Shown here in pieces: positions 39,936 through 60,151 of a stretch of 64,000 bases of DNA; position 1 is the stretch's first letter; the number at the start of each line of letters is the position of its first letter. Source of the stretch: an uncultured Burkholderiales bacterium. Lineage in GTDB: Bacteria > Actinomycetota > Acidimicrobiia > IMCC26256 > JAGPDB01. Both the position numbers and the translations under genes were made by a program. The stretch spans positions 64,475 through 128,474 of the forward strand of contig CAZLQP010000002.1 in the NCBI GenBank assembly GCA_964561855.1, read 5' to 3'. Under the pieces are notes generated by a model that worked only from the letters and a program-made list of their open reading frames with translations, made no database searches and was not told the DNA's origin.

Positions 39936-40340
39936 TTACCACACCTCACAAAGTACTTCGCCACCGACGTGAGTTTCACGAGCTTGACGATCTGTTATTA
40001 CACCTTTTGATGTAGAAAGAATAGCAATACCCATTCCACCTAACACTCTAGGAATTTCATTTGACGGTTTATATATACGAAGACCAGGTTTTGAAACTCT
40101 TTTAATACCTGTAATTACTCTTTCACGCTTTGGTGAATATTTCATTTTAATATTCAAAACTTTATATGGTTTATCAGCTGGGTCTTCAACACTGAATTCT
40201 TCAATGAAACCTTCAGAATGCAATATTTTTGCAACTGCTTCTTTAAGTTTGCTTGAAGGCATTGATACTTGGTCATGCATAGCAATATTCGCGTTACGAA
40301 TACGGGTAAGCATATCTGCGATTGGGTCTGTTACGTTCAT
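39936..40340 (-). CDS. rpsH: 30S ribosomal protein S8
   Basis: [14 protein letters not shown] motif. Confidence 0.97.
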
Positions 40341-45926: not shown

Positions 45927-46669
45927 TTAGCAGCCTCCTTTTCAAGTGCATCAATGCCAGCATCGATAATGTTGTCGTAAGTTACGCTGTCGTCTTGTTC
46001 AGAGTAACTTGCAACATGTTCACCTTTAAGCATTCTTAGAAGTGCATCGAAAGTGTCTTGAGAAAAGACTACGTAGTCACTGCATAGAACATCGTATGCA
46101 TTTAACTCTCTTGGAAGAATTAGTTGTACTTGATCTGATAAACCACGAAGTGACTTCCACGTATTTTCATCTCGATGATCAACAACAACCAGGAGTCTTG
46201 GTAGTTTTTCTTTAACATTTGAGCTTCGAAGTTCTAGTGCTTCTAGGACTTTGATTGCGTCTTTAGTTTTAGGAGCTTCAATGTCCCAGCTATCGACGAT
46301 TACAATCTTTGAATCTTGTGCACGATCAGAAAGTGATTGCAACAAAGCTGCACGGATCATTTTCTTTGGTGTCTTTTGAGAATAATCACGTGGACGAAGA
46401 GCGTGTGTCATTCCACCACCACGCCAGATTGGAGAACGTGATGATCCTGCACGTGCACGACCTGTTCCTTTTTGACGCCATGGCTTTGATCCACCACCGC
46501 TTACTTCAGAGCGAGTTTTAGTTTTTTGTGTACCTTGTCGAGCTGCTGCTAATTGAGCAAGCACAACTTGGTTAAGTAAAGATATGTTTGGCTCTAAACC
46601 GAAGAACTCCTCTGGAAGTTCTATCTTCTTTGAGTCTTTACCTTGTGAAGTTTTTGAGGTGATCTGCAT
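45923..46669 (-). CDS. rplD: 50S ribosomal protein L4
   Basis: 248 aa. KPWRQKGTGRAR motif. Confidence 0.96.
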   Translation of the reverse strand: MQITSKTSQGKDSKKIELPEEFFGLEPNISLLNQVVLAQLAAARQGTQKTKTRSEVSGGGSKPWRQKGTGRARAGSSRSPIWRGGGMTHALRPRDYSQKTPKKMIRAALLQSLSDRAQDSKIVIVDSWDIEAPKTKDAIKVLEALELRSSNVKEKLPRLLVVVDHRDENTWKSLRGLSDQVQLILPRELNAYDVLCSDYVVFSQDTFDALLRMLKGEHVASYSEQDDSVTYDNIIDAGIDALEKEAAK

Positions 46670-47325
46670 TAGTTACTCACCTTCTTTGCTGGAGCTTTTG
46701 CTCCTGTCTTGATAAATACAACAGAACCTTTGTTACCAGGCACTGAACCTTTAATCATTAGAACATTTCGCTCTGGGTCTGCTGCTACGACTTTAAGATT
46801 TTGTGTAGTAACAGTAACTTGACCAAATTGACCGGCCATTCTTTTACCTTTGAAAACACGACCTGGCGTTGCACAAGCACCAATTGATCCTGGTGCACGG
46901 TGGTGTTTATGGTTACCGTGTGCTGCACCTTGACCTTTGAAGTTGTGGCGCTTCATTCCACCAGCAAAACCGTGACCTTTAGAGATACCAGTTACGTCTA
47001 CGATTTCGTCTTTTTCAAATTGGTCAACTGTAATTGCTTGACCAACTTCGTAACCTTCTAGATCTTGAACTCGGATTTCTGCAAGCTTGCGTGCAGATTC
47101 GATGTTTGCATTTTTTAAATGTCCAAGAGCTGGCTTGGTCATATTGCGTTCTTTTTTCTTTCCCATCGCTAATTGGATAGCACTGTATCCATCGCGTTGG
47201 GGAGTTTTAATTTGTGCAATATGACAAGGCTCACATTGAATAACGGTTACAGGAATAACCTTGTTGTTTTCATCCCAGAGTTGAGTCATTCCGACTTTCA
47301 CTCCGAGCATGCCTTTAGTAGTCAT
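46669..47325 (-). CDS. rplC: 50S ribosomal protein L3
   Basis: MTTKGMLGVKVGMTQLW N-terminus. Confidence 0.97.
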   Translation of the reverse strand: MTTKGMLGVKVGMTQLWDENNKVIPVTVIQCEPCHIAQIKTPQRDGYSAIQLAMGKKKERNMTKPALGHLKNANIESARKLAEIRVQDLEGYEVGQAITVDQFEKDEIVDVTGISKGHGFAGGMKRHNFKGQGAAHGNHKHHRAPGSIGACATPGRVFKGKRMAGQFGQVTVTTQNLKVVAADPERNVLMIKGSVPGNKGSVVFIKTGAKAPAKKVSN

Positions 47326-47362
47326 GACATTGGCTCGTTTCTAGTTGCGGGCTTATCTTTTG

Positions 47363-47390
47363 TACCTTTTGGAGGGTCAGTCCTCCGGTA
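47363..47390. repeat. Half copy of the palindromic repeat (gtaccttttggagggtcagtcctccggtac) in the rplC 5' leader
   Basis: Matches the right arm of the 39322..39391 copy. Flanking gtacc/ggtac can close a small stem. Confidence 0.8.
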
Positions 47391-47604
47391 CTTTTGGCGT
47401 TTATTCACACCAACGCTCCGACAGTGCTGGGCACTCGGAGCGCGAGATCAGTTGTGTTATCTGGTTCCTTGGAACGGAATTGTTCTAAGGCCTTGATAAA
47501 CGTCGGTTAAAACGTGTAGCTAATTTTGTTTCGCAAAATTGGCAAGGTGATATATATTAGGGCAACTTTAGGGCTTTTGTACAATCGGAGCGAAAAGTTC
47601 TCAC

Positions 47605-47635
47605 TAAACAAAAATGGCCCGACAAAAGTCGGGCC
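47605..47635 (-). terminator. Intrinsic terminator after the 595-aa gene (GGCCCGAC-TTTT-GTCGGGCC, then ATTTTTGTTT on the minus strand)
   Basis: 8-bp GC stem at 47616-47635 plus a U-rich tract. Confidence 0.85.
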
Positions 47636-47653
47636 ACAAAACTATTGCTTAAG

Positions 47654-49441
47654 TTATCTGGCAATACCTCGAGGCTTGATTGCTTGCCAAACAGATTTCG
47701 CAGTTTCAACTACTTGTCCTGCCCTTTGAGCAACCTGGCTCGCTCTTTCAGCTACTCTTCCAGCTAGATGTGCACCATTTGCAATTCTTGATGTTGAAGT
47801 AAATGGAGCAGGCTTTGACTCGATAACCGGTGATTCGCTCTCTTGAGCAACTACAGGCTCTGCAACTGGCACTACAACAGGAGCAGGTTCAAACGTTGTA
47901 GGTTGAATTGTTCCTAATAAAGCACCAGCCAAAAGGTTACCTTCGGCTTGTGAAAGCACTATTGGAGCTGTCTTAACAGTTGTCGCTTCAGGGTTCAATC
48001 TTAGTGATGCTGGTAATAATGCATCTGGCACTGAATAACCTTGCATCTGTGAAACTCGATTCTCGCCTTGAATATATGCTGGCTGAACTTCTGGTTCATT
48101 CGCAGGTGTTGATTCGATTGTTGAACTTGCAGTGGTAGTAGGTTCTGGAGTTAGAAATGTTTCAACTGGTGTGAAATATGGAGTTTCTGGTTCAGCCCAA
48201 AGCAGTGGAGGTGGTGTTGGAACCCCTGAGCTTTCGACAACTGGTTGAACTACAGGTTCTGAAAAGGCAATTTCTTCTGTCGCCCAGTCGTAAAGCTTTG
48301 GTCGATCAACTGTCATATCTACAACTGCTGGTTCAAAAGGTACTTCTGGAGTTTCAAAAATAGCTTCGAATTCGTCGATTACAGTTGGAGATTGTTCAGT
48401 TTCAGGAAATCCTTCAGTGTTTTCGAAGATTGCATCGATTTCAGCTGCAAGTTCTGGATTTAGTTCTGTTTCTAGGCTTTCTTGTCCATCTTTTCTTCTT
48501 CTAGCCGCCGCTGCCGCAGCTGCAGATCCAGCAAGCAATGCAGCTCCTGCGCCAACAGCTCCACCGCCGACCATAAGACCAAGAATCGGATTTATTCCTG
48601 TTCGCGGCAAAGTACCTTTAGGTCCTTCTGGCTGAGCTTGAGGTTGAGGTTCTGCTGGTGGAGCAGGTTGCGGAGCAACTGTTGTTGGAGCCTCAGTTGT
48701 TGGAGGTTCAGTTGTTGGAACAACAGTTGTTGTTGTGGTTGTAGTGGTTGTCGTTGTAGTTGTAGGAATCTCAGGTTCTTTTATTCCACATTCGTCTACT
48801 AAAAATGCCATCGCTTCTTCAAGAGTGAGAGGATTGTCTCCTTCTTCTTGAAGAATTCTCAAAGCTTCTTCAAAACCTTCAGGAGTTGTGATATCAACAT
48901 CTCGAAGTTCTAAACCTTCAAGAAATTCTGGACATGCACCTTCGTCATGAGGAATTGTTGTAGTAGTAGAAGGAGTTGTTGTTGTAGTAGTAGAGGCTGG
49001 AGGTTCAGTTGTTGTAGTAGTTGAAGGGTGAGTTGTAGTTGTTGTAGAAGCTGGTGGCTGTGTTGTAGTCGTTGGTGGTTCAGTAGTTGTTGTTGGAATT
49101 GTAGTTGTAGTTGTAGGAACTGGCTTTGGCTTTCCACACTCATCAACTAGATATGCATTAGCTTCAAAAGGAGTCATTTCTCTTTCGGAAATAAGGATTG
49201 TATATGCACTTTCCCAACCAGCAGGAGTAGTAATATCGATACCTCTTAGTTCAAGACCTTCTAAGAATTCTTCACAACCACCTTCATCTTGAACGAGTGT
49301 AGTTGTAGTGCCATTAGCACCCACTGGAGCAGCGTTATTTATGGCAAGACCAGCACCACCACCGAACAATGCTGCTGTTGCACCAATGGAAACAGCTGCT
49401 CGTCTGATTGGATTTGGTTGTCTTACTTTTTTGGGAGCCAT
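47654..49441 (-). CDS. Thr/Pro-rich exported protein with two copies of a two-Cys domain, an internal LPRTG + TM + RRRK sorting-signal-like segment, and a tail of about 280 aa
   Basis: 595 aa. N-terminal signal-like segment. Repeats at residues 53-103 and 167-219. LPRTG at residues 278-282. AAAGGA RBS 6 nt before the ATG. Confidence 0.8.
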   Translation of the reverse strand: MAPKKVRQPNPIRRAAVSIGATAALFGGGAGLAINNAAPVGANGTTTTLVQDEGGCEEFLEGLELRGIDITTPAGWESAYTILISEREMTPFEANAYLVDECGKPKPVPTTTTTIPTTTTEPPTTTTQPPASTTTTTHPSTTTTTEPPASTTTTTTPSTTTTIPHDEGACPEFLEGLELRDVDITTPEGFEEALRILQEEGDNPLTLEEAMAFLVDECGIKEPEIPTTTTTTTTTTTTTVVPTTEPPTTEAPTTVAPQPAPPAEPQPQAQPEGPKGTLPRTGINPILGLMVGGGAVGAGAALLAGSAAAAAAARRRKDGQESLETELNPELAAEIDAIFENTEGFPETEQSPTVIDEFEAIFETPEVPFEPAVVDMTVDRPKLYDWATEEIAFSEPVVQPVVESSGVPTPPPLLWAEPETPYFTPVETFLTPEPTTTASSTIESTPANEPEVQPAYIQGENRVSQMQGYSVPDALLPASLRLNPEATTVKTAPIVLSQAEGNLLAGALLGTIQPTTFEPAPVVVPVAEPVVAQESESPVIESKPAPFTSTSRIANGAHLAGRVAERASQVAQRAGQVVETAKSVWQAIKPRGIAR

Positions 49442-49535
49442 ATTAAATCCTTTTACTAGGTTTTATGAAGTAACGTATTATTTCGGACAAATTAACACAA
49501 ATAAGTGTAGCGGGTATTTCATGAGAATGCAAAAA

Positions 49536-50468
49536 TTATCTTGAAACTGGTTCTTTTTGTGGACAATCTCTAGCCAATACTGCTCCACCATTGATTCGCA
49601 CAATTGATCTCGGATGATTTGCCCCCAAGTTGCGCGCATTTTGTGCGAAGTCAGAACCTTGAATCACCATGCCTGTTTTCCCAGTTGGGACAGTATCCCC
49701 ATCCAAGAAACGATCTACGGCATCGGTTTCACCAGAATTGAGGTGTTCAACATACTCTTCGTCTAACAGCTCTGGTCTTAGTTGTTGAAAAATATCAGCC
49801 TTTTGTTCTTCCAACTCTTCAATTTGAGTGTCAAATTCACTCTTTTGTTCCAAATATTCATCGATTCTTTGATTTCTAAGTTGATCTATATAGTCCTTGA
49901 GCTGGTCAAAGAAGCTCAAATCTGCAATTGCGACTACAAATTCTTCCATCTGAGGATCAAAAATGACTCCGTCTGGTGTTTCAGAGAGACCTTGCCCATA
50001 AATTGGCAGATACATTTCTTTCAAATTTTCGAAGGCATAGCGCAAAACAACACTATTTTTTCCGCTTGGAGTTATCCCTTCGCTAAGAGCAAAAAGTCCT
50101 TCTAATTCAGTTCTAATTGAATCTTTACTTGGGTAAAAGCGAGGTCGCAATGGTAGTAGTCCAGATTCAAGCTGATCTATAGCTTGTTGCTCAAAAAGTG
50201 AATTGTCGCCTAACCCCCATTTCAAATGGCTTTTCTTCGACAATCTGGTTTGTCGCTTCAAAGCAGCCTCGATTACGACTCTTACTTCTTTGCCAACACG
50301 GTTTTCTATACCTCGTAAAACGTAATGCAAAGCCATCGGGTTTGAAATGACATTTTGGTGGTTACCTACAACAGACATTGAGCTTTGATATTGATTGATT
50401 CTATATTTTTCGAAAAAACCTAAATTGCGATCAATATCGTCACTGATTGCGTCATTCCTAGCGCCCAT
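49536..50468 (-). CDS. Hypothetical cytoplasmic protein, 310 aa, no family recognised
   Basis: Long ORF with an AGGA RBS 6 nt upstream. Contains a coiled-coil-like acidic segment (EYLEQKSEFDTQIEELEEQKADIFQQL). Confidence 0.65.
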   Translation of the reverse strand: MGARNDAISDDIDRNLGFFEKYRINQYQSSMSVVGNHQNVISNPMALHYVLRGIENRVGKEVRVVIEAALKRQTRLSKKSHLKWGLGDNSLFEQQAIDQLESGLLPLRPRFYPSKDSIRTELEGLFALSEGITPSGKNSVVLRYAFENLKEMYLPIYGQGLSETPDGVIFDPQMEEFVVAIADLSFFDQLKDYIDQLRNQRIDEYLEQKSEFDTQIEELEEQKADIFQQLRPELLDEEYVEHLNSGETDAVDRFLDGDTVPTGKTGMVIQGSDFAQNARNLGANHPRSIVRINGGAVLARDCPQKEPVSR

Positions 50469-50508
50469 TAGTCATCCTTGAGAATTATTAGTACTTTTTG
50501 TCCTAATT

Positions 50509-50539
50509 ATTCTAGTTCACAATGGATATGCACTGTCAA
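50509..50539 (-). promoter_or_regulatory. Candidate promoter TTGACA-19 nt-TAGAAT for the 49536..50468 / 47654..49441 gene pair
   Basis: Both hexamers read on the minus strand between the rpsJ stop and the 310-aa ORF. The spacer is one to two nt longer than optimal. Confidence 0.5.
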
Positions 50540-50587
50540 GAGGTCATGACAATTAGAGCTTAATATATTAAGAAAAGTGAACCTAGT

Positions 50588-50905
50588 TTATGCAGTCTGG
50601 ATTTTAATCTCGATGTCAACACCTGCAGGAAGATCAAGGCGTTGAAGAGATTCAACAGTATTTCCTGTTGGTTCCATAATATCGATTAGTCGCTTATGAA
50701 TTCTCATCTCAAAGTGTTCACGAGCATCTTTATCTACGTGTGGAGAAGTGGTAACTGTATAACGGTGTTTTTCGGTTGGAAGAGGGATAGGTCCTACAAC
50801 TCTGGCCTTAGTTCTAACTACTGTTTCTACGATTTTTTTAGATGACTGATCGATTAATTCATGGTCATATGCTTTTAGTCGTATACGAATTTTTTGGTCT
50901 TGCAT
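50588..50905 (-). CDS. rpsJ: 30S ribosomal protein S10
   Basis: [19 protein letters not shown]... 105 aa from the ATG at 50905. The ORF-track N-extension is rejected. Confidence 0.96.
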
Positions 50906-51026
50906 TCCTATTCCCTTGTCAAACAGCGGTTTTGCTTTTGTATCACAAAATAACAGAGGAAATACTAGTTCAAATATCATGCTTAAAACAAATGCAAGAC
51001 ATTTACCGATTCTATAAGATGTCTAA

Positions 51027-51506
51027 ATGTCCAGATATGAGAAAATCGCCTTTGTTTGCTTAGGTAATATCTGCCGCTCCCCAACTGCAGAGGCAATTAT
51101 GAAAGATATTTTGAAGAGAGAAGATTTAGACGGGATCAGTGTCTCATCTTATGGAACATCCTCATGGCATGAAGGTGACAGTGCTGATCCTCGGGCAATA
51201 GCCGAAGGTAAAAGACGCGGAGTCGAGATCGATTCGATTGCTAGCCCCCTGACTGCCGATATTGCTTTGAGCCTCGATCTTATTTTGGTGATGGATAAAT
51301 CTAACTATAAAAATGTATTAAAACTCTTGCCAGAAAACATGCACGACAAAGTTAAATTTCTCGGAAGTTTTGAGCCTGGAGCTAAAACTGATGCTGAAAT
51401 TTCAGACACTTATTATGGAGATTCCCAAGGATTTGCCAAAGGTTTTGAACACATCTCTCGCTGTTGTGAAGGCTTGTATGTCTATCTAGCAAAATTCAAC
51501 TCATAA
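51027..51506 (+). CDS. Low-molecular-weight protein tyrosine phosphatase / ArsC-like fold
   Basis: 159 aa. CLGNICRS (CX5R-S) P-loop, with a DP motif downstream. Confidence 0.85.
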   Translation: MSRYEKIAFVCLGNICRSPTAEAIMKDILKREDLDGISVSSYGTSSWHEGDSADPRAIAEGKRRGVEIDSIASPLTADIALSLDLILVMDKSNYKNVLKLLPENMHDKVKFLGSFEPGAKTDAEISDTYYGDSQGFAKGFEHISRCCEGLYVYLAKFNS

Positions 51507-51545: not shown

Positions 51546-53915
51546 CTATGCGCTCTCAACACTTTTAAGAGTAGATCCTTTGATCATTGATAATGGAACG
51601 TCCGAAGCCTTTATTGCTTGAGAATACAAATATCCTTGTGCTTGGGTACAACCCAGATCACGCAACGTATCTCGAATTTCACTACTTTGCACACCTTCTG
51701 CAGTAACTACTAATCCCATCGATTTTCCAAGTGCAATTAATGCATTTACTATCGCTGTATCGTTCTCATCATGACCATAACCGCGAATGAACGAACCATC
51801 AATTTTAAATCCTGCAATAGGGAACTTTTTCAGATAAGACAATGAAGAATAACCTGTTCCAAAATCATCGATAACAACAGCAAAACCATGTGACTTTAAT
51901 TCGTTCAAAAGCGACATTACTCCGCGCGCATCTCCGAGTAGCGCAGATTCTGTCATTTCAAAAATTATTCTTGAAGGTGCAATCTGATACTTCGCACAGT
52001 AACTCATGATATCAAGCATAAATCTCGGATGACTAAGTTGACGTTGTGAGATGTTGATATTGATACTCATAGAATTAACACCATGGGTTCGATCCCAATT
52101 TGAAAGTTGTTTCAAACTTTCTCTAATTATTGCATCACCTAGATCAATTATTAAACCATTGTCTTCAGCAACGGGGATGAACTCATCAGGAGAGATGTAA
52201 CCATGCTCATGATGATTCCATCTAGCTAAAGCTTCGAATGCAACTGTTTTATTTGTTTCTAAATCAATAATTGGCTGGAAGAAAGTTTCGATTTCGCTTC
52301 TAGCAATAGCTTTATGCAAATCACTCAACGACCATATTGAGATGTCTCGCGCAGGCTTTAGGGATTCAGATGCATACTCAATTCTGTTACGTCCAAGTTC
52401 CTTTGCCCGATACATTGCAGCATCTGCATTTCTAAGTAATTCTTGAGGTTCAGCATTTGCTTCTGTATCACTCATTGCAATACCGATCGAACAAGTCAGA
52501 TACATTTCATTTCCAAAAACATCTATTGGCTTTATAACTTCATCCAAAACTCGCATTGCTAAATCAAAAGTGACATCTCGTTGAGCAGGTGGTGAAACCA
52601 AAATCGCAAACTCGTCTCCTCCTAATCGACAAACGAGCCCTTGGTCACCCACGACACCAGATATTCGATGAGCGATTGTCTTAATCACTAAGTCACCGCT
52701 TTCGTGTCCAAAGGTATCGTTAAGTTCTTTGAATCGATCTAAATCGATAAACATCACCGCCAATGAATCATCTTCATCGATTTGATCTAATTCACTTTCT
52801 AGAGACTCAATAAAATACGATCTATTGACCAAATCAGTGAGTGTATCGTGAGTTGCGAGTTCTTGATATTTTTCTTCGCTTTTCGAGATTTCAATAATCG
52901 AATTATGTTGAGATTCAACCAACTTCTTGTTGTCAAAGAAACCGACAATTTGTGTCACCAAAATAGCTGCAAACACCATCAGAAAACTGTATAAAACTAC
53001 ACTAGGGACTTCTTCAACACGAGATACTGTAGTAAATGCTATCCCCAATATCGCGGCGATCATAATATATGCAACTACAGCTAATTTGATTTCACTCTTA
53101 TGATTGGGTTGATGCTTTGGAATGCCATCTGCAGTTGTCGTACCGTGTACCCAAAACAATAGTGCAGTAAAAATCAAAATCCTCTGTATCGGTCTACCTA
53201 CCGATTCATCTTGAAATCTTCCAGCTACATAAAGAATGTCTGCTGTGGCATTACTAAACAAACCAAGCATGATGTAGAAGATAGATTTATCTATTTGACG
53301 ATACAAAATAAGCGCAATACCTACTGAGATAATGATGATATCGAAAGTAAATGTCGCAAAATCAATTAGATGATTTTCAAACAAGCTTTCTTTATTCGGC
53401 GCAACGAACAAAGAGATGTAGACAACACCCACGAAGGCTACACACGCACCAAAAGTTATGGAATGAACAAGTAGTTGAATCTTCTCTCTTTTTGGAAGAC
53501 CATAAAACCCAAGCATCAATATTCCGACCACAACAGTTGGAATAGCCATCAGAATGAAGTAGTCCGCGAGATTCGGGCTGATATGAGGATTACCTGAAGT
53601 AATCGGATGGATGATCATTACAAGCTGGCCTGGTATCCACAAAAGTGCAGCAATCATAATGAGTTTCCAAGCAAGCAACCTTGTTTTCTTTACTTTGTCT
53701 GCAACATGTACAATAAAGATTAAGTAAAATGCGAGCTTGACTGCTTCAAAAAATGAAACTCCAAAAATTGCACGGCTATCTGGAATCAGAAACATGGTCG
53801 AATAAAAAACCACTGCTGCAACATATCCAATAAGTAAAATACTAAAATAAGTTTTCTTTTGAACTGAGATGACTCGAACCACTATCTTGTTGAGAGCAGC
53901 ACTAATAGATTCCAT
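51546..53915 (-). CDS. Polytopic membrane sensor with GGDEF and EAL domains (c-di-GMP turnover)
   Basis: 789 aa. About 9-10 N-terminal TM helices. RLGGDEFAIL, EALARW and DDFGTGYSSL motifs. Confidence 0.88.
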   Translation of the reverse strand: MESISAALNKIVVRVISVQKKTYFSILLIGYVAAVVFYSTMFLIPDSRAIFGVSFFEAVKLAFYLIFIVHVADKVKKTRLLAWKLIMIAALLWIPGQLVMIIHPITSGNPHISPNLADYFILMAIPTVVVGILMLGFYGLPKREKIQLLVHSITFGACVAFVGVVYISLFVAPNKESLFENHLIDFATFTFDIIIISVGIALILYRQIDKSIFYIMLGLFSNATADILYVAGRFQDESVGRPIQRILIFTALLFWVHGTTTADGIPKHQPNHKSEIKLAVVAYIMIAAILGIAFTTVSRVEEVPSVVLYSFLMVFAAILVTQIVGFFDNKKLVESQHNSIIEISKSEEKYQELATHDTLTDLVNRSYFIESLESELDQIDEDDSLAVMFIDLDRFKELNDTFGHESGDLVIKTIAHRISGVVGDQGLVCRLGGDEFAILVSPPAQRDVTFDLAMRVLDEVIKPIDVFGNEMYLTCSIGIAMSDTEANAEPQELLRNADAAMYRAKELGRNRIEYASESLKPARDISIWSLSDLHKAIARSEIETFFQPIIDLETNKTVAFEALARWNHHEHGYISPDEFIPVAEDNGLIIDLGDAIIRESLKQLSNWDRTHGVNSMSININISQRQLSHPRFMLDIMSYCAKYQIAPSRIIFEMTESALLGDARGVMSLLNELKSHGFAVVIDDFGTGYSSLSYLKKFPIAGFKIDGSFIRGYGHDENDTAIVNALIALGKSMGLVVTAEGVQSSEIRDTLRDLGCTQAQGYLYSQAIKASDVPLSMIKGSTLKSVESA

Positions 53916-54035: not shown

Positions 54036-54506
54036 TTAGCTAATTTTACTTAGAATGTCCTTGTCGGAACACGCTTTTTTGAAAGCAATTAATCTTCTAT
54101 CGATGTCCCTTTGTAAAATTTTTGAGCCGAAATATTCCATTAAAGGTTTTAGCAGTTTTGGTTTGCAAACAAAATTGTAACGCCAGGTAACTAGAACTCT
54201 TCCTTCATCTGTATCTACAAAGTTCCATCCGCCGGAAAATGATTTGAAGAACCAAGGACCTTTAACCATTTTCATACCAACATGATTTGGAGGATTATAA
54301 GTAATATATTCCGAAATCATCTCGAGACCGTGTTTAGATTTCGTTTGGGTTCTAACACCCTTATCAGCTTTTGTTGCTCCATCTAAAAGATGTTGTTCTT
54401 TAACAAATGGATCCCACTTGTATCTGATTTTGCCATAGGTTTGTGAAAGCTTAAAAGCTGTTTGAATATCTAGATCTATTTCTACTTGTGACTGAACTCT
54501 GGGCAT
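54036..54506 (-). CDS. SRPBCC (polyketide cyclase/START-like) family protein
   Basis: 156 aa. The fold assignment rests on the length and a general sequence pattern only. Confidence 0.55.
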   Translation of the reverse strand: MPRVQSQVEIDLDIQTAFKLSQTYGKIRYKWDPFVKEQHLLDGATKADKGVRTQTKSKHGLEMISEYITYNPPNHVGMKMVKGPWFFKSFSGGWNFVDTDEGRVLVTWRYNFVCKPKLLKPLMEYFGSKILQRDIDRRLIAFKKACSDKDILSKIS

Positions 54507-54529
54507 ACATTCAATCTAGTTATTGGGTA

Positions 54530-54555
54530 CAAAAAAAGGACCTCATTGAGGTCCT
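54530..54555 (-). terminator. tuf intrinsic terminator (AGGACCTC-att-GAGGTCCT, then TTTTTTTG on the minus strand)
   Basis: 8-bp stem at 54537-54555, with a 7-A run on the plus strand at 54531-54537. Confidence 0.85.
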
Positions 54556-54577
54556 TTTCTCAAGTTTATTGCTTAAA

Positions 54578-55768
54578 TTACTTTGTAATTTTTGCTACAA
54601 CTCCAGCACCTACAGTTCGGCCACCTTCACGGATAGCAAAACGTAGTCCTTCTTCCATAGCAATTGGCTTTTGCAATTCAACTTCCATTGCTACATTGTC
54701 GCCAGGCATAACCATTTCAGTTCCTTCTGGAAGCTTGATTGAACCTGTCACGTCAGTTGTACGGAAGTAGAACTGTGGTCGGTAGTTTGCGAAGAATGGG
54801 GAGTGTCGTCCACCTTCTTCTTTTGAAAGAATATAAACTTCGCAAGTGAAGTCTGTATGAGGTGTAGTTGTACCTGGAGCTGCAAGTACTTGTCCACGCT
54901 CAACTTCTTCTTTCTTAGTGCCACGTAGAAGACAACCAACGTTTTCCCCAGCGCGACCTTCATCTAGAAGCTTGCGGAACATTTCAACACCGGTCACAAC
55001 AGTCTTCGTTGTTGGATTTAGACCAACGATTTCAACTTCTTCGTTAACCTTAACGATTCCTCTTTCAACACGTCCTGTAACAACAGTTCCACGACCTGTA
55101 ATTGAGAACACGTCCTCAATAGGCATCAAGAATGGCTTGTCTTCGTCACGGTCTGGTTCTGGAATGAATTCATCAACTGCATTCATTAATTCCATAACCT
55201 TGTCTTGCCAGTCAGAGTCGCCTTCAAGTGCTTTAAGAGCAGAAACACGAACGATTGGAGTGTCATCGCCTGGGAATTCATATTGTGTTAGCAATTCACG
55301 AATTTCCATCTCAACAAGTTCAAGAAGTTCTTCATCATCAACCATGTCTGATTTGTTAAGAGCAACAACGATTGAAGGAACACCAACCTGGCGTGCAAGA
55401 AGAATGTGCTCACGTGTTTGAGTCATAGGACCGTCAGTTGCAGCAACTACAAGAATTGCTCCATCCATCTGAGCAGCACCTGTGATCATGTTCTTTACAT
55501 AGTCTGCGTGACCTGGGCAGTCAACGTGTGCATAGTGACGCTTCTCTGTTTCATATTCAACGTGAGTAACGCTGATGGTAATACCACGATCGCGCTCTTC
55601 TGGAGCGTTGTCGATGTTTGCGAAATCAGTAAAAGTATTGTTTCCACCAATCTTGTCTGACAGGGTCTTTGTGATTGCTGCAGTCAGAGTTGTCTTTCCA
55701 TGGTCAACGTGACCGATTGTACCAACATTCAAGTGTGGCTTACTGCGCTCAAATTTTTCTTTAGCCAT
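54578..55768 (-). CDS. tuf: Elongation factor Tu
   Basis: [27 protein letters not shown] from the ATG at 55768. Confidence 0.98.
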
Positions 55769-55903
55769 TGATGGCAACCTTTCTTTTTACTTTCAAGGAT
55801 CTATTGGACATACATTTTATATCCGCGGACAGAAACTTTAGCCTATCACAAGCCATAATGTGAACTTGTGCTCCAAGGCTGCATTTTATACCGTTTATAT
55901 AGT

Positions 55904-56407
55904 CTATTTCCCCAGCTGATCTAAAGCATATTGTGGGATAAGTTTTCGCCACTCTTTTGGTTCGAATCTATATCCACGGCGACCCAATATCGATTTATCG
56001 AAGTGACGGATTTTGATCAATTCAAAACTGCCGAGATTTACATTTGAAAATTCTGATCCAGTTCTAGCATTCCAATCGTAGGATTCAATTTTTGCAGAAA
56101 ATAATACCTCTCGAGAATGCTTATGCAAACGAGACACGCTCAAGAACGAGCCAACTTCAATACCGGTAGCAGCTAGCTCTTCAATAAGTTCACGCTGCAA
56201 TGCTTTTTTGAGAGTCATTTCAAGGTTCTTTTGGCCATTATGAATTACAAGGTCGGATTTTTCGATCCGACCGCCGGGACAAATCAAAAACGATTTTGAG
56301 TGGCCAAAATGTGTCCTTCGGATAAATAGGTAATCATCGTTGCACTTCACAAGCCCACGGACTTTAATTCTTGCTATTGGCATTTTTGAAATATGCGGTA
56401 TTTCCAT
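55904..56407 (-). CDS. Nudix-fold protein with an atypical, insert-containing Nudix box (paralog 2)
   Basis: 167 aa. CPGGRIEKSD ... LQRELIEELAATG. Roughly 40-45% identical by eye to 56439..56936. Confidence 0.65.
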   Translation of the reverse strand: MEIPHISKMPIARIKVRGLVKCNDDYLFIRRTHFGHSKSFLICPGGRIEKSDLVIHNGQKNLEMTLKKALQRELIEELAATGIEVGSFLSVSRLHKHSREVLFSAKIESYDWNARTGSEFSNVNLGSFELIKIRHFDKSILGRRGYRFEPKEWRKLIPQYALDQLGK

Positions 56408-56438
56408 AGCATGAAAGTATCACACAAGTGAGGAGTTT

Positions 56439-56936
56439 CTACAAACTGAATTGACTTTGACGGTTGAGAATAAGCTTCTTCCATTTTCTGGGTTTTAGTC
56501 GATAACCCTTGGAGCCGAGTAATTTCTTGTCGAGGCTCTCAACTTCTACCAATTCATATGTGCCTTTGTGTTCCTGAGAGAATTCTTTTCCAGTTTTGTT
56601 TTCCCAATCAATTGAAGCAACGTCGACATGATATAGAACTTCGATTGAACCCCGCTTAGATTTTCTGACATCCAATAAATCACCTACCACAATTTCTCGC
56701 GCAGCTAATTCCTCTTGAAGTTCTCTTCTTAAGGCTTCCTTTAAAGTCTTACCGATGTTTTTCTTATCGCCTTTTATACGATCAGATTTTCTTAAACGAC
56801 CACCAGGAAATACTGTGTAGTGTTTTTTCTTTTCAGGTCGTGTGCGTTTTATAAAGATGTACTTATTACCGCAATGCACAAAACCGCGCACGGCGATCGA
56901 CTTAATCGGAGTCGTATCGAGCTCTTCAATTTCCAC
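56439..56936 (-). CDS. Nudix-fold protein with an atypical, insert-containing Nudix box (paralog 1)
   Basis: 165 aa. FPGGRLRKSD ... LRRELQEELAARE. GTG start. Confidence 0.65.
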   Translation of the reverse strand: MEIEELDTTPIKSIAVRGFVHCGNKYIFIKRTRPEKKKHYTVFPGGRLRKSDRIKGDKKNIGKTLKEALRRELQEELAAREIVVGDLLDVRKSKRGSIEVLYHVDVASIDWENKTGKEFSQEHKGTYELVEVESLDKKLLGSKGYRLKPRKWKKLILNRQSQFSL

Positions 56937-56949
56937 CCCACCATTTTAT

Positions 56950-57028
56950 CGGGGGACTGACCCTCCATAATGCTCAAAAGGGACACATTATGTGTCCCTT
57001 TTGAGCATTATGGAGGGTCAGTCCCCCG
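56950..57028. repeat. GC-rich palindromic intergenic repeat, longest copy (79-nt perfect palindrome) just after the fusA stop
   Basis: cgggggactgaccctccataatgctcaaaagggacaca t tgtgtcccttttgagcattatggagggtcagtcccccg. Symmetry checked base by base about 56989. Confidence 0.9.
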
Positions 57029-57035
57029 GGTAGAG

Positions 57036-59120
57036 TTATTCGCCTTTTACTTTGGCAACGATTTCTTCTGCAATTGCACCAGGCACTTGTTCATAATTAT
57101 GGAACTGCATTGAATATGCTGCTCGACCTTGTGTCTTAGAACGAAGGTCATTTACATAACCGAACATGTTCGCTAGAGGAACTTTAGCTTTAATAACTTG
57201 AGAGTTACCTCGTTGTTCCATTCCTTCAACTTGTCCACGACGAGAGTTGATATCTCCAATCACATCACCCATGTAATCTTCTGGAGTTGTAACTTCCACA
57301 CTCATCACTGGCTCAAGCAAAACAGGTTTTGCTTTACGAGCAGCTTCTTTGAAGCCCATAAGTCCTGCAATACGGAAAGCCATTTCAGAAGAGTCAACAT
57401 CGTGGTAAGAACCATAAGTCAAATCTACTTTGACGTCTACCATTGGATAACCAGCCAATACACCAGTCTCCATTGCATCGATAATACCTTTTTCAACTGC
57501 TGGAATGTACTCGCGAGGAATAACACCACCGGTGATTGAGTTAACGAATTCAAATCCGCCGCCAGGACCAGAGGGCTCAACTGTAATAACAACATCAGCA
57601 TATTGTCCAGAACCACCAGATTGTTTAACGTGCTTGTATTGAACCTTCTCAACTTTTTGCGAAATAGTTTCACGATAAGCAACTTGAGGTTTACCAACGT
57701 TTGCATCAACATTGAATTCACGCTTCATTCGATCAACCAAAACTTCAAGGTGAAGCTCGCCCATACCGCGAATGATTGTCTGTCCTGTTTCTTCGTCAGT
57801 GTTGACCTTAAATGTTGGGTCTTCTTCCGAAAGCGAAGCTAGAGCTTTTGCAAGCTTGTCTTGATCGTTCTTTGTTTTAGGTTCGATTGCAACACTGATC
57901 ACAGGTTCTGGAAATTCCATATTTTCCAAGATGATCGGATTTGATTTGTCGCAAAGAGTATCACCAGTTGTTGTTTGCTTGAATCCAAGTCCAGCAACAA
58001 TGTCACCTGCGTATGCAACTTCAATATCTTCACGATCATTTGCATGCATACGAAGAAGTCGACCAATTCGTTCCTTCTTATCACGAGTCGAATTGTAAAG
58101 ATCTTGACCCTTTTCAATCTTTCCAGAATAAATACGGAAGTAAGTAAGTTTTCCATAAGGATCCGCTACAACCTTAAATGCAAGTGCAGAAAATGGTTCG
58201 TTGTCGTCTGCATGGCGCTCATCTGGAGTTTCGCCGTCCATTTTTGTTCCGTTAATTGAAGCAATATCTAACGGTGATGGAAGGTAATCTACAACAGCAT
58301 TAAGCATTGGCTGAACACCTTTGTTCTTAAATGCTGAACCACAAAGCACAGGAACAAATTCACCAGCGATTGTTCCCTTTCGAATTGCTCTCTTTAGTTC
58401 TGCTTCGGTGATCTCTTCATCGTTGAGGTATTTCTCCATGATCTCATCATCAGTAGCAGTTACAGAATCCAAAAGCAAGTGCCGGTATTCATCAGCTTGC
58501 GCTTTTAGTTCTGGACGAATCTCGCAAACTTCAAACTCTTGACCTTCACTTGGATCGTCTAGCGCCCATTTAACTTCTTTCATCTGAACAAGATCAACGA
58601 TTCCTTCAAAAATATCTTCTGATCCAATTGGTAAATGAAGTACTGCAGTAGTTGCACCAAGTCGTTCTTGAATCATTCCTAAACACATGAAGAAGTCTGC
58701 ACCCGTTCGGTCCATCTTGTTCACGAAACACATTCTTGGAACACCATATTTATCAGCTTGACGCCAAACAGTTTCTGATTGAGGTTCTACACCTGCAACA
58801 CCATCGAAAACTGCAACTGCACCATCGAGCACACGAAGTGAACGCTCAACTTCAACAGTGAAGTCAACGTGACCCGGTGTGTCAATAATTTGGATCATGT
58901 GGTCGTTCCACATACATGTTGTAGCAGCAGATGTAATGGTAATACCACGCTCTTGCTCTTGAGCCATGTGGTCCATCACTGCTCCACCTTCATGTACTTC
59001 ACCGATTTTGTATGTACGTCCGGTGTAATACAAGATACGTTCAGTAGTTGTTGTTTTACCGGCGTCGATGTGAGCCATGATTCCGATGTTGCGAACTTTT
59101 TCTAATGGGTGACGTGCCAT
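57036..59120 (-). CDS. fusA: Elongation factor G
   Basis: 694 aa. [20 protein letters not shown]. Confidence 0.98.
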
Positions 59121-59154
59121 TTTTTTCTTTCTTTCGTTTTTTAAATATCTTAGA

Positions 59155-59282
59155 GTTTGGTGGTGGATCCAGCGAGTATCTGAGATCGCATTTGCAGCGA
59201 GAGAAGAGACCTTAGGCTCTTCTCGTCAGCGAAGCTGCGCGAAACGCGATCGAAGATAGTCGCTGGGTTCACCACCGAAAAC
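59155..59282 (-). ncRNA. Unclassified multi-hairpin element, copy B (candidate structured RNA in the rpsG-fusA spacer)
   Basis: Imperfect outer stem of about 23 bp (59159-59181 / 59254-59276, extendable). gatcgc/gcgatc helix. 58-nt core at 59188-59245, homologous to 26384-26441. Confidence 0.6.
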
Positions 59283-59288
59283 CGAGTG

Positions 59289-59774
59289 TTACCATCTAAA
59301 GTGAGCAAATGCTTTGTTAGCTTCTGCCATCTTTTGAAGGTCATCACGTTTTTTGATTGATGTACCAACACCATTTGCTGCATCGATAATTTCTTGAGCA
59401 AGTCGTTGCGCCATAGTTTTTTCACGACGTTTACGAGAGTGCTCTACAATCCATCGAATAGCTAAAGTTGTTGCACGACGAGGCTTTACTTCAACTGGTA
59501 CTTGGTATGTTGCACCACCGACACGACGAGAACGAACTTCCAAAGCTGGACGAACATTTTCGATTGCTTTTTTCAGCGTTGGAATTGGATCTCCTGCTTG
59601 CGCATCTTCTGTTTTCTTTTCCTTGACAATTTCAAGTGCGTCATAAACAATTTTTGCTGCAACAGATTTTTTTCCGTGCAAAAGAATTTTGTTAATTAAT
59701 TGTTGAACTACAACTGAATGATAAATCGGATCAGGTAATAGTTCTCTTCTGGGAGCTGGACCTTTACGTGGCAT
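59289..59774 (-). CDS. rpsG: 30S ribosomal protein S7
   Basis: [18 protein letters not shown] ... AFAHFRW. Confidence 0.98.
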
Positions 59775-60151
59775 TAGGACTTAGCCTCCTTCTTCGCACC
59801 ATAACGACTTCGAGCTTGTTTACGATTTGCAACACCTGCAGCATCGAGTGTTCCTCGAACTACTTTGTATCGCACACCTGGAAGGTCCTTTACTCGACCT
59901 CCACGAACAAGAACGATTGAGTGCTCTTGAAGGTTATGACCAATACCTGGAATGTAAGCTGTTACTTCAACTCCAGTGCTTAGACGAACACGCGCTATTT
60001 TTCTTAGAGCTGAGTTCGGTTTACGAGGGGTAAGAGTTTTTACTTGGGTACATACTCCACGACGTTGTGGTGACCCTTTCAAAGCTGGTACCACAGATTT
60101 TGTGGTTTTATCTTTTCGTCCTTTACGAACGAGCTGTTCAATTGTTGGCAC
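59774..60151 (-). CDS. rpsL: 30S ribosomal protein S12
   Basis: [11 protein letters not shown]... [12 protein letters not shown] start 7 nt after AGGAG. Confidence 0.98.

Follow-up and report, generated by a model that had tools for sequence, protein, structure and literature searches.

In E. coli, the S10 operon begins with rpsJ (ribosomal protein S10, also known as NusE), which is followed after a short spacer by rplC (L3), and the L4 leader of this operon is restricted to Gammaproteobacteria (PMC3616713). A leader of the S10 cluster also occurs outside Proteobacteria, in Firmicutes, where it precedes rpsJ, as far as it is described in a survey that cites it (PMC7247131). The same survey reports an L4 leader candidate in Archaeoglobi, located directly 5′ of rplC-rplD-rplW-rplB, with S10 encoded outside the cluster and the ligand assigned by precedent. 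Here, we analyse the rpsJ–rplC region in a 64,000-nt stretch of contig CAZLQP010000002.1 (the window), from a member of the Acidimicrobiia with a low GC content (41%). In the window, the two genes are 3262 nt apart and rplC is preceded by a conserved structured RNA. The first-pass annotation of this locus took it for an S10 operon split by the insertion of two genes. On our reading of the related loci, these genes did not break an operon; they occupy a slot that had parted two independent units before the class radiated.

A different arrangement prevails in cyanobacteria, plastids and archaea, where rps10 follows tuf in the str operon, while rpl3 opens a cluster of its own. The Acidimicrobiia relatives of the window match this: tuf and rpsJ are neighbours, and rplC stands apart with a promoter region of its own. 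In the window genome and its closest kin, by contrast, rpsJ has lost tuf too and is isolated on both sides. As in E. coli, the leader is a likely site of autogenous control; unlike in E. coli, it precedes rplC rather than rpsJ, which lies outside the unit, and the RNA differs in structure and sequence, lacks an attenuator terminator and has no Rfam match. With the Archaeoglobi candidate it shares the position directly 5′ of rplC, the exclusion of S10 and a ligand inferred by precedent, but that candidate is archaeal, shows no similarity in Rfam scans and has far fewer instances and less covariation than the Acidimicrobiia motif. The Firmicutes leader resembles it in belonging to an S10 cluster outside Proteobacteria, but precedes rpsJ, and no Rfam family matched the region in the window or in L045, a locus with a high-scoring copy of the motif.

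All genes of the rpsJ–rplC interval discussed here lie on the minus strand. Read from rpsJ, the interval comprises a 119-nt spacer, an open reading frame (ORF) of 310 codons (ORF310), a 94-nt spacer, a second one of 595 codons (ORF595), a terminator and ~280 nt before rplC, with the following features:

50588–50905, minus strand: rpsJ (S10/NusE; Pfam Ribosomal_S10, 9.8e-35; the start at 50905 agrees with the family N-terminus)
50509–50539, minus strand: TTGACA-19-TAGAAT promoter candidate of the first-pass annotation, not above chance
49536–50468, minus strand: ORF310, orphan, acidic, mostly helical predicted protein
47654–49441, minus strand: ORF595, Thr/Pro-rich membrane or surface protein, judged from its translation
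47604–47637, minus strand: intrinsic terminator, 10-bp stem with 7 GC pairs and a T-run
47554–47584, minus strand: promoter-like block TTGTAC-N19-TAATAT, conserved in the related loci L084, L087 and L168
47402–47507, minus strand: rplC leader RNA motif with helix P1, inner hairpin P1a and hairpin P2, from a covariance model and RNAalifold
47394–47413, minus strand: P3 hairpin (UUGGUGU-GAAUAA-ACGCCAA), from single-sequence folds
46669–47325, minus strand: rplC (L3; Pfam Ribosomal_L3; gene calls and Pfam matches also on the identical contig L082)

The rpsJ–rplC slot and the structured RNA upstream of rplC

Among 185,579 species representatives, the best matches to the window L3 are metagenome-assembled genomes (MAGs) of Acidimicrobiia, at no more than 66% identity. 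The positions of tuf, rpsJ and rplC were determined in 80 loci from genomes and 80 from metagenomes. Wherever a related locus shows both tuf and rpsJ (125 cases), the two are neighbours, 14–145 nt apart (median 40 nt and maximum 144 nt in 69 genome representatives; median 37 nt in 56 metagenome contigs). The spacer between rpsJ and rplC has a median of 265 nt in the genome loci and 254 nt in the metagenome loci, and is 100 nt or shorter in only 7 of 137. The premise that rplC follows rpsJ after a short spacer therefore fails in the Acidimicrobiia, where the median over these 137 loci is ~260 nt and rpsJ is tied to tuf; in the window, too, the E. coli arrangement is missing. Wider gaps are not rare: 11 of 73 species representatives (~15%) exceed 500 nt, eight exceed 1 kb, and the widest gap reaches 9.4 kb. 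In four further genome representatives, rpsJ is missing within 4.4–10 kb upstream of rplC.

The genes that fill the slot are unrelated and differ by lineage, among them a multicopper oxidase, a PrsW protease, a HAD hydrolase together with an ICMT methyltransferase, and a luciferase-like oxidoreductase on the opposite strand. The widest insertion (L079, 547–10001; 9.4 kb) lies between rpsJ and the rplC leader, and by eye its ORFs include IS110-type and IS4/IS1380-type transposase-like genes, a MazF/PemK-like toxin, as part of what resembles a toxin–antitoxin pair, and an ACR3-like transporter. Judged from these ORFs, mobile DNA uses the same slot. The survey of spacing and cargo in relatives thus makes the split lineage-typical and the site a recurrent insertion slot: the rpsJ–rplC interval is a permissive location used repeatedly for accessory genes. 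The physical split described in the first-pass annotation is genuine (its coordinates check, and the 3262-nt gap holds two same-strand ORFs), and our data support its view that rpsJ and rplC are physically apart and, almost certainly, not transcribed together. The synteny comparison it had proposed finds the split, at ~15% of species with more than 500 nt, shared by relatives, but not the particular pair of genes.

Immediately upstream of rplC, the class carries an RNA motif of ~100 nt with three helices. The inner hairpin P1a varies in length, and the base of P2, comprising its lower 8 bp (GCGCUCCG/CGGAGCGU), is almost invariant. When 54 copies were aligned by MAFFT, without fitting to the structure, RNAalifold returned 25 pairs, 16 of which show compensatory changes with both sides altered. 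Paired cells amount to 96.7% in this fold, as against 34–48% with the partners slid by one to three columns; the covariation score is 0.375, compared with at most 0.096 in controls; and none of 500 shuffles reaches any of the pairing or covariation measures.

A covariance model of the motif (R1) matches 72 of the 80 genome loci at 52–96 bits, with a weaker match in L070 (33 bits) and a cut-off trace in L066. Its matches are all directly 5′ of rplC, other than reverse-strand shadows of the palindromic P2 and a single match at E = 0.69 in 1.4 Mb. A second model (R2), for which neither the window nor its near relatives were used, has a single match in the 64 kb of the window, the copy at 47402–47507 (46.6 bits, E = 4e-7). 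It yields 68 matches 5′ of rplC in 72 metagenome and relative loci, scoring 47.8 bits in L087 and 35.3 bits in L084 and L085 and recovering 65 other metagenome loci, always 5′ of rplC. The strong matches, ~140 in number, all lie 15–230 nt upstream of rplC, and apart from the shadows and the E = 0.69 match the motif occurs nowhere else in the ~2.2 Mb searched. It is kept in loci where rpsJ is missing upstream (L037, L041, L062, L070 and L162), and it is absent from the few loci with rpsJ–rplC spacers of 12–71 nt. The exclusive position and the structure make a ribosomal-protein leader the best reading of this RNA.

We know of no regulator of these ribosomal-protein genes in the phylum. In Rfam 15, neither the window copy nor the high-scoring copy from L045 has a match at E ≤ 10, and no ribosomal-leader family matches window positions 40000–62000 at E ≤ 1. 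Text searches of the literature returned no description of a ribosomal-protein leader in Acidimicrobiia, and the survey by Eckert and Weinberg lists only the archaeal L4 candidate before rplC (PMC7247131). The rplC leader RNA is apparently previously undescribed.

Downstream, the variable hairpin P3 takes its 5′ arm from the conserved 3′ tail of the motif (yyGCGUG); L087 has a compensatory G→A change in P3, and many loci have analogous hairpins. In L002, L003 and L033, from the lineages closest to the window at the class level, the tail GCGUUCGC can pair with a purine-rich stretch before the rplC start (…GGCGAAACG-AUG, GGAACGC). This pairing hints at occlusion of the ribosome-binding site, and it is not kept in all copies. 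An alternative pairing between the 5′ strand of P1 and a downstream GAUAAG was discarded, since neither L084 nor L087 preserves it, as judged by eye. No attenuator terminator follows the motif, so control is probably translational.

Transcription signals around the slot

In front of the leader, the window has TTGTAC at 47584–47579 and TAATAT at 47559–47554, and the whole block (CGATTGTACAAAAG...CCTAATATAT) is conserved across the window and the three relatives nearest to it. It sits where the class as a whole has a −10 box: of 58 loci, 57 have TANNNT, often preceded by GGTG or GGTA, 8–85 nt 5′ of the motif, whereas the composition of the same loci predicts 4.4%. This pattern argues strongly for a promoter of its own in front of rplC. 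The first-pass annotation had deduced that rplC to rpsQ must be expressed from a new promoter. The need for a separate promoter holds, but its newness does not, given the −10 box in 57 of 58 loci and the RNA motif in ~140. Because promoter and leader are class-wide and ancestral, the rplC–rpsQ genes would never have depended on a leader in front of rpsJ. The supposed release of these genes from L4-responsive control likewise involves no loss, the E. coli leader being confined to Gammaproteobacteria (PMC3616713).

Upstream of the promoter block, a stem at 47637–47614 (10 bp, 7 GC pairs) is followed by TTTTTGTTT. It confirms the terminator that had been proposed to close the inserted unit, and L084 has a homologous terminator after its ORF595-like gene; the 280-nt leader noted before rplC is also present. 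Rfam models of terminator-containing small RNAs (sRNAs) align at 47604–47637, and we rejected the Rfam matches near 47610–47660 as RNA families, for they only mirror the terminator hairpin.

The promoter proposed for the two inserted genes fared less well. Its letters are there (TTGACA at 50539–50534, TAGAAT at 50514–50509), but the 19-nt spacer falls outside the 16–18 range, which is why a consensus promoter scan missed it. Sites matching at least 11 of 12 positions number 3 in the 64-kb window, as against 3.4 ± 2.0 in Markov-1 simulations, so the candidate does not rise above chance. Its TTGACA is also the 3′ arm of a weak hairpin (50553–50532). We looked for a terminator between rpsJ and ORF310 and saw none, which makes read-through from rpsJ into ORF310 and ORF595 plausible. 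Just 5′ of rpsJ (window 50906–51026; L168 640–748), the sequence …CCGCTrTTTGACAAGGGAATAGGA-ATG is kept in the window and L168 despite different upstream genes (S10 86% identical); no consensus promoter was detected in this region.

The two cargo genes and their nearest relatives

ORF310 and ORF595 both show the gene-like order of GC content at the three codon positions (GC1 > GC2 > GC3). With GC3 of 0.32, against a window mean of 0.29 ± 0.05, ORF310 is typical of the window in composition and codon usage. ORF595 has the lowest GC3 in the window (0.18), in part owing to its Thr (ACT/ACA) runs, and its codon fit equals that of the ribosomal-protein genes. The comparison of composition suggested by the first-pass annotation thus turns up nothing foreign in the GC content or codon usage of the two genes, and no marks of a mobile element: Pfam mobility domains, integrases, transposases and tRNAs were not found at the insert, nor were direct or inverted repeats at its boundaries, where the only repeats are internal ones of Thr codons. 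Of the traits of a mobile element, deviant composition and mobility marks are missing and patchy presence in close relatives is found.

ORF310 is a soluble orphan. It belongs to no Pfam or NCBIfam family, no relatives were found in genome contigs, and among 5.8 billion clusters and 1.84 billion representatives it matches itself and one 39-residue repeat, a match of unclear meaning. Its AlphaFold model (pLDDT 39, pTM 0.21) was not used. ORF595, which has no Pfam or NCBIfam family above cut-off either, consists of an N-terminal hydrophobic segment, two Cys-containing repeats of ~55 aa parted by Thr/Pro runs, an internal LPRTG, hydrophobic and RRRK segment (residues ~278–317) and a 278-aa C-terminal part. 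The N-terminal hydrophobic segment, the Thr/Pro-rich stalks and the LPRTG, hydrophobic and basic cluster recall sortase-anchored LPXTG proteins. ORF595 differs from these in that its sorting-like segment is internal and 278 residues with a conserved motif follow it, so that the sorting signal is not at the extreme C-terminus. It has no match to TIGR01167.

Two weak homologues of ORF595 were found, the informative one being P0004 (L084, 636–2084). This protein has the LPRTG–transmembrane (TM) segment of ORF595 and its C-terminal motif VPDALLPASLRLNPE, with 56% identity over 57 residues, and reaches 14.4 bits against the TIGR01167 cut-off of 15.9. ORF595 and P0004 make up a small family with a mid-protein LPXTG-like motif, a TM segment and a basic cluster, followed by a long C-terminal part with Y.QGENR...VPDALLPASLRLNPE. 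P0004 is encoded directly 5′ of the terminator, promoter and leader region of an rplC whose product is 82% identical to the window L3. This arrangement of an ORF595-like gene, terminator, promoter and leader is found in L084 and L085 (both L3 82% identical). L084 has no counterpart of ORF310: a partial ORF 5′ of P0004 is dissimilar (E = 0.5) and has no Pfam domain. Between the terminator and the rplC promoter block, L084 has an insert of ~150 nt (2170–2320), absent from the window, with nested or tandem palindromic units (…CGCGAGCGCATATCC… three times, flanks CCCAACGC/GCGTTGGG) that resembles a miniature repeat element.

In L087 (L3 83% identical), the same promoter block and leader are preceded by a divergent 317-aa gene for which no family was found. 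In L168 (S10 86% identical), the order is DUF1801, rpsJ and a hairpin or terminator, with neither ORF310 nor ORF595, and the promoter block starts ~155 nt after the rpsJ stop; this locus apparently represents the un-inserted state. The specific two-gene cargo is therefore lineage-variable and differs even among the closest relatives. Since it differs in this way and L168 seems to lack an insert, the cargo itself was gained or lost recently. The separation of rpsJ from rplC, the promoter box and the leader are all class-wide and hence predate the cargo.

Competing explanations and their weight

We consider it quite probable that rpsJ is the tail of the str/tuf unit, that rplC heads a unit with its own promoter and leader, that the slot between them holds accessory genes and that the leader is a ribosomal-protein leader. 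In the class, rpsJ would close the str/tuf unit and rplC would open an independent one with a promoter and a ~100-nt leader RNA; in the window genome, the slot would be filled by two lineage-specific genes, ORF310 and ORF595. Their transcription would probably reach them from rpsJ by read-through, with a weak internal promoter as a possible second source. The terminator at 47604–47637 would then halt transcription and insulate the rplC promoter (~47554–47584) and the leader (47402–47507). As a ribosomal-protein leader, which it most likely is, the RNA would be bound at the invariant P2 helix and junction by an operon-encoded protein in excess over rRNA, and this binding would turn down rplC together with the genes coupled to it. 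Candidate ligands are uL4, by precedent in E. coli and Archaeoglobi, and uL3, the product of the first gene.

Several observations weigh against this account. The motif is not universal in the class, as 7–8 of the 80 genome loci are without it, three of them with spacers of 200–700 nt. No element that sequesters the Shine–Dalgarno (SD) sequence and no terminator is common to all copies, and the hairpins downstream vary. Comparison with E. coli 23S and 16S rRNA, rather than the native rRNA of Acidimicrobiia, revealed no convincing mimicry; the best local matches span 15 nt, with a single occurrence of GGAGCGUU (23S position 1192). Mimicry of rRNA sites by ribosomal-protein leaders is common, not obligatory. 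The rplC promoter is deduced from sequence, and the −35/−10 pair of the window has a 19-nt spacer. As the L168 contig breaks off within the promoter block, ~210 nt past the stop codon of rpsJ, the un-inserted state was not followed as far as rplC. Finally, the rpsJ/ORF310 junction rests on two overlapping independent contigs, no single one of which spans 50488–50517.

This last point bears on the possibility that 47.3–50.6 kb is a chimeric join produced in assembly or binning. Three Logan contigs from run SRR6318357, which also carries exact proteins of the window genome, are 100% identical to the window (51755–50488, 50517–47808 and 47388–43172). The Logan assembly does break at 50488/50517, 47808 and 47388, no fetched contig spans these points, and 47388–47808 is covered by no independent contig. 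The first two contigs nevertheless overlap by 30 nt at the rpsJ/ORF310 junction, as expected for neighbouring nodes of a k = 31 graph; the order of ORF595-like gene, terminator, promoter block, leader and rplC recurs in two other samples (L084 and L085); and GC content and codon usage run without a break across the region. The misjoin that the first-pass annotation named as a risk is thus unlikely, and a chimeric origin of the interval appears to us very improbable. A more substantial rival, and the one closest to the earlier interpretation, is that a horizontally acquired two-gene cassette recently broke an ancestral rpsJ–rplC operon, forced a new promoter into being and orphaned the downstream genes from their regulator. 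That ORF310 and ORF595 are essentially without homologues, and that the cargo varies among the closest relatives with L168 seemingly insert-free, would fit such an event. However, the separation, the promoter box and the leader are class-wide and older than the cargo, the cargo has native composition and codon usage, integrase, transposase, tRNA and flanking repeats are missing, and the regulator supposedly lost is the Gammaproteobacterial one (PMC3616713). The rewiring of the operon in this scenario is largely refuted, and we regard the scenario as a whole as improbable.

The opposite view of the cargo, in which ORF310 and ORF595 are tied to rpsJ or to translation in a selected rpsJ–ORF310–ORF595 operon rather than being neutral passengers, draws on their location on the rpsJ strand with no terminator after rpsJ, on the codon usage of ORF595, which is like that of highly expressed genes, and on the ORF595-like gene at the same position in L084 and L085. 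Against this stand the missing counterpart of ORF310 even in L084, the absence of both genes from L087 and L168, the unrelated genes that fill the slot in other lineages, and the Thr (ACT/ACA) runs, which partly account for the low GC3 of ORF595; a selected operon of this kind seems to us no more credible than the recent cassette. As regards the RNA, it could instead be a small-molecule riboswitch, an element for RNase processing or stability, or a Nus/boxA-like antitermination signal. The missing rRNA mimicry in the E. coli comparison would suit such functions, the invariant nucleotides of the junction and P2 base could equally be a ligand pocket or a protein site, and rpsJ, encoding NusE, adjoins in most genomes. 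But a boxA-like consensus is not evident, and no riboswitch in Rfam matches. Riboswitches, in contrast to the rplC motif, usually control several metabolic operons. A motif found only before one ribosomal-protein operon (~2.2 Mb) bears the signature of a ribosomal-protein leader (PMC7247131, PMC3616713), and we judge these other functions to be unlikely, if somewhat less so than the two explanations built on the cargo. For the ribosomal-protein leader, we lean slightly towards the view that the ~100-nt RNA is an undescribed class-wide leader of Acidimicrobiia that senses uL4 or uL3 in place of the Gammaproteobacterial S10 leader, and that its position records an early re-partition between the str and S10 operons, which left behind a permissive slot between rpsJ and rplC that various lineages, the one of the window among them, fill with new genes, many of them orphans.

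On its other side, rpsJ in the window is parted from tuf by 3672 nt with three genes, one of them on the opposite strand, so it does not directly follow tuf as it does in the 125 related loci. The features upstream of it are:

54578–55777, minus strand: tuf (EF-Tu; Pfam GTP_EFTU with domains D2 and D3)
54036–54506, minus strand: SRPBCC protein (Pfam)
51546–53915, minus strand: GGDEF/EAL protein (Pfam)
51027–51506, plus strand: low-molecular-weight phosphotyrosine phosphatase (LMW-PTP; Pfam LMWPc)

On the contig that encodes P0007 (S10 94% identical), the order is tuf, a PNPOx-like gene, a GGDEF/EAL gene and rpsJ, which indicates that the break between tuf and rpsJ is common to the sublineage of the window. 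There, rpsJ stands alone as a ribosomal gene, stranded between two blocks of cargo. In the str region (54036–60151), the order runs rpsL-rpsG-fusA, a palindrome, two NUDIX genes, tuf, SRPBCC, GGDEF/EAL, LMW-PTP on the plus strand and rpsJ, fusA and tuf also being parted, by the 77-nt palindrome and the NUDIX genes. The palindrome (56951–57027; GGGGGACTGACCCTCCATAATGCTCAAAAGGGACACAT|ATGTGTCCC...) is almost perfect and sits close to the downstream end of fusA; it may serve as a terminator in both directions or represent a repeat element. Rfam matches to mir-515 and mir-2542 there, on both strands, were dismissed as palindrome artefacts. Elsewhere in the window, L22 (43652–44479) has 275 aa, with the Pfam domain at residues 14–117 and a Lys/Ala/Glu/Ser-rich C-terminal extension of ~155 residues.

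Viewed as a disrupted S10 operon, the locus is ordinary for its class: an entire actinobacterial class is built on another operon plan, and neither synteny annotation of MAGs nor extraction of phylogenomic markers should presume the E. coli layout. The rpsJ–rplC slot is in effect a "safe harbour" for new genes, orphans included, beside very highly expressed ones. What the analysis yields is a well-supported candidate ribosomal-protein leader, with ~140 instances and strong covariation, before the largest ribosomal-protein operon. It offers a directly testable RNA–protein interaction and may be a further case of the lineage-by-lineage reinvention of such leaders.

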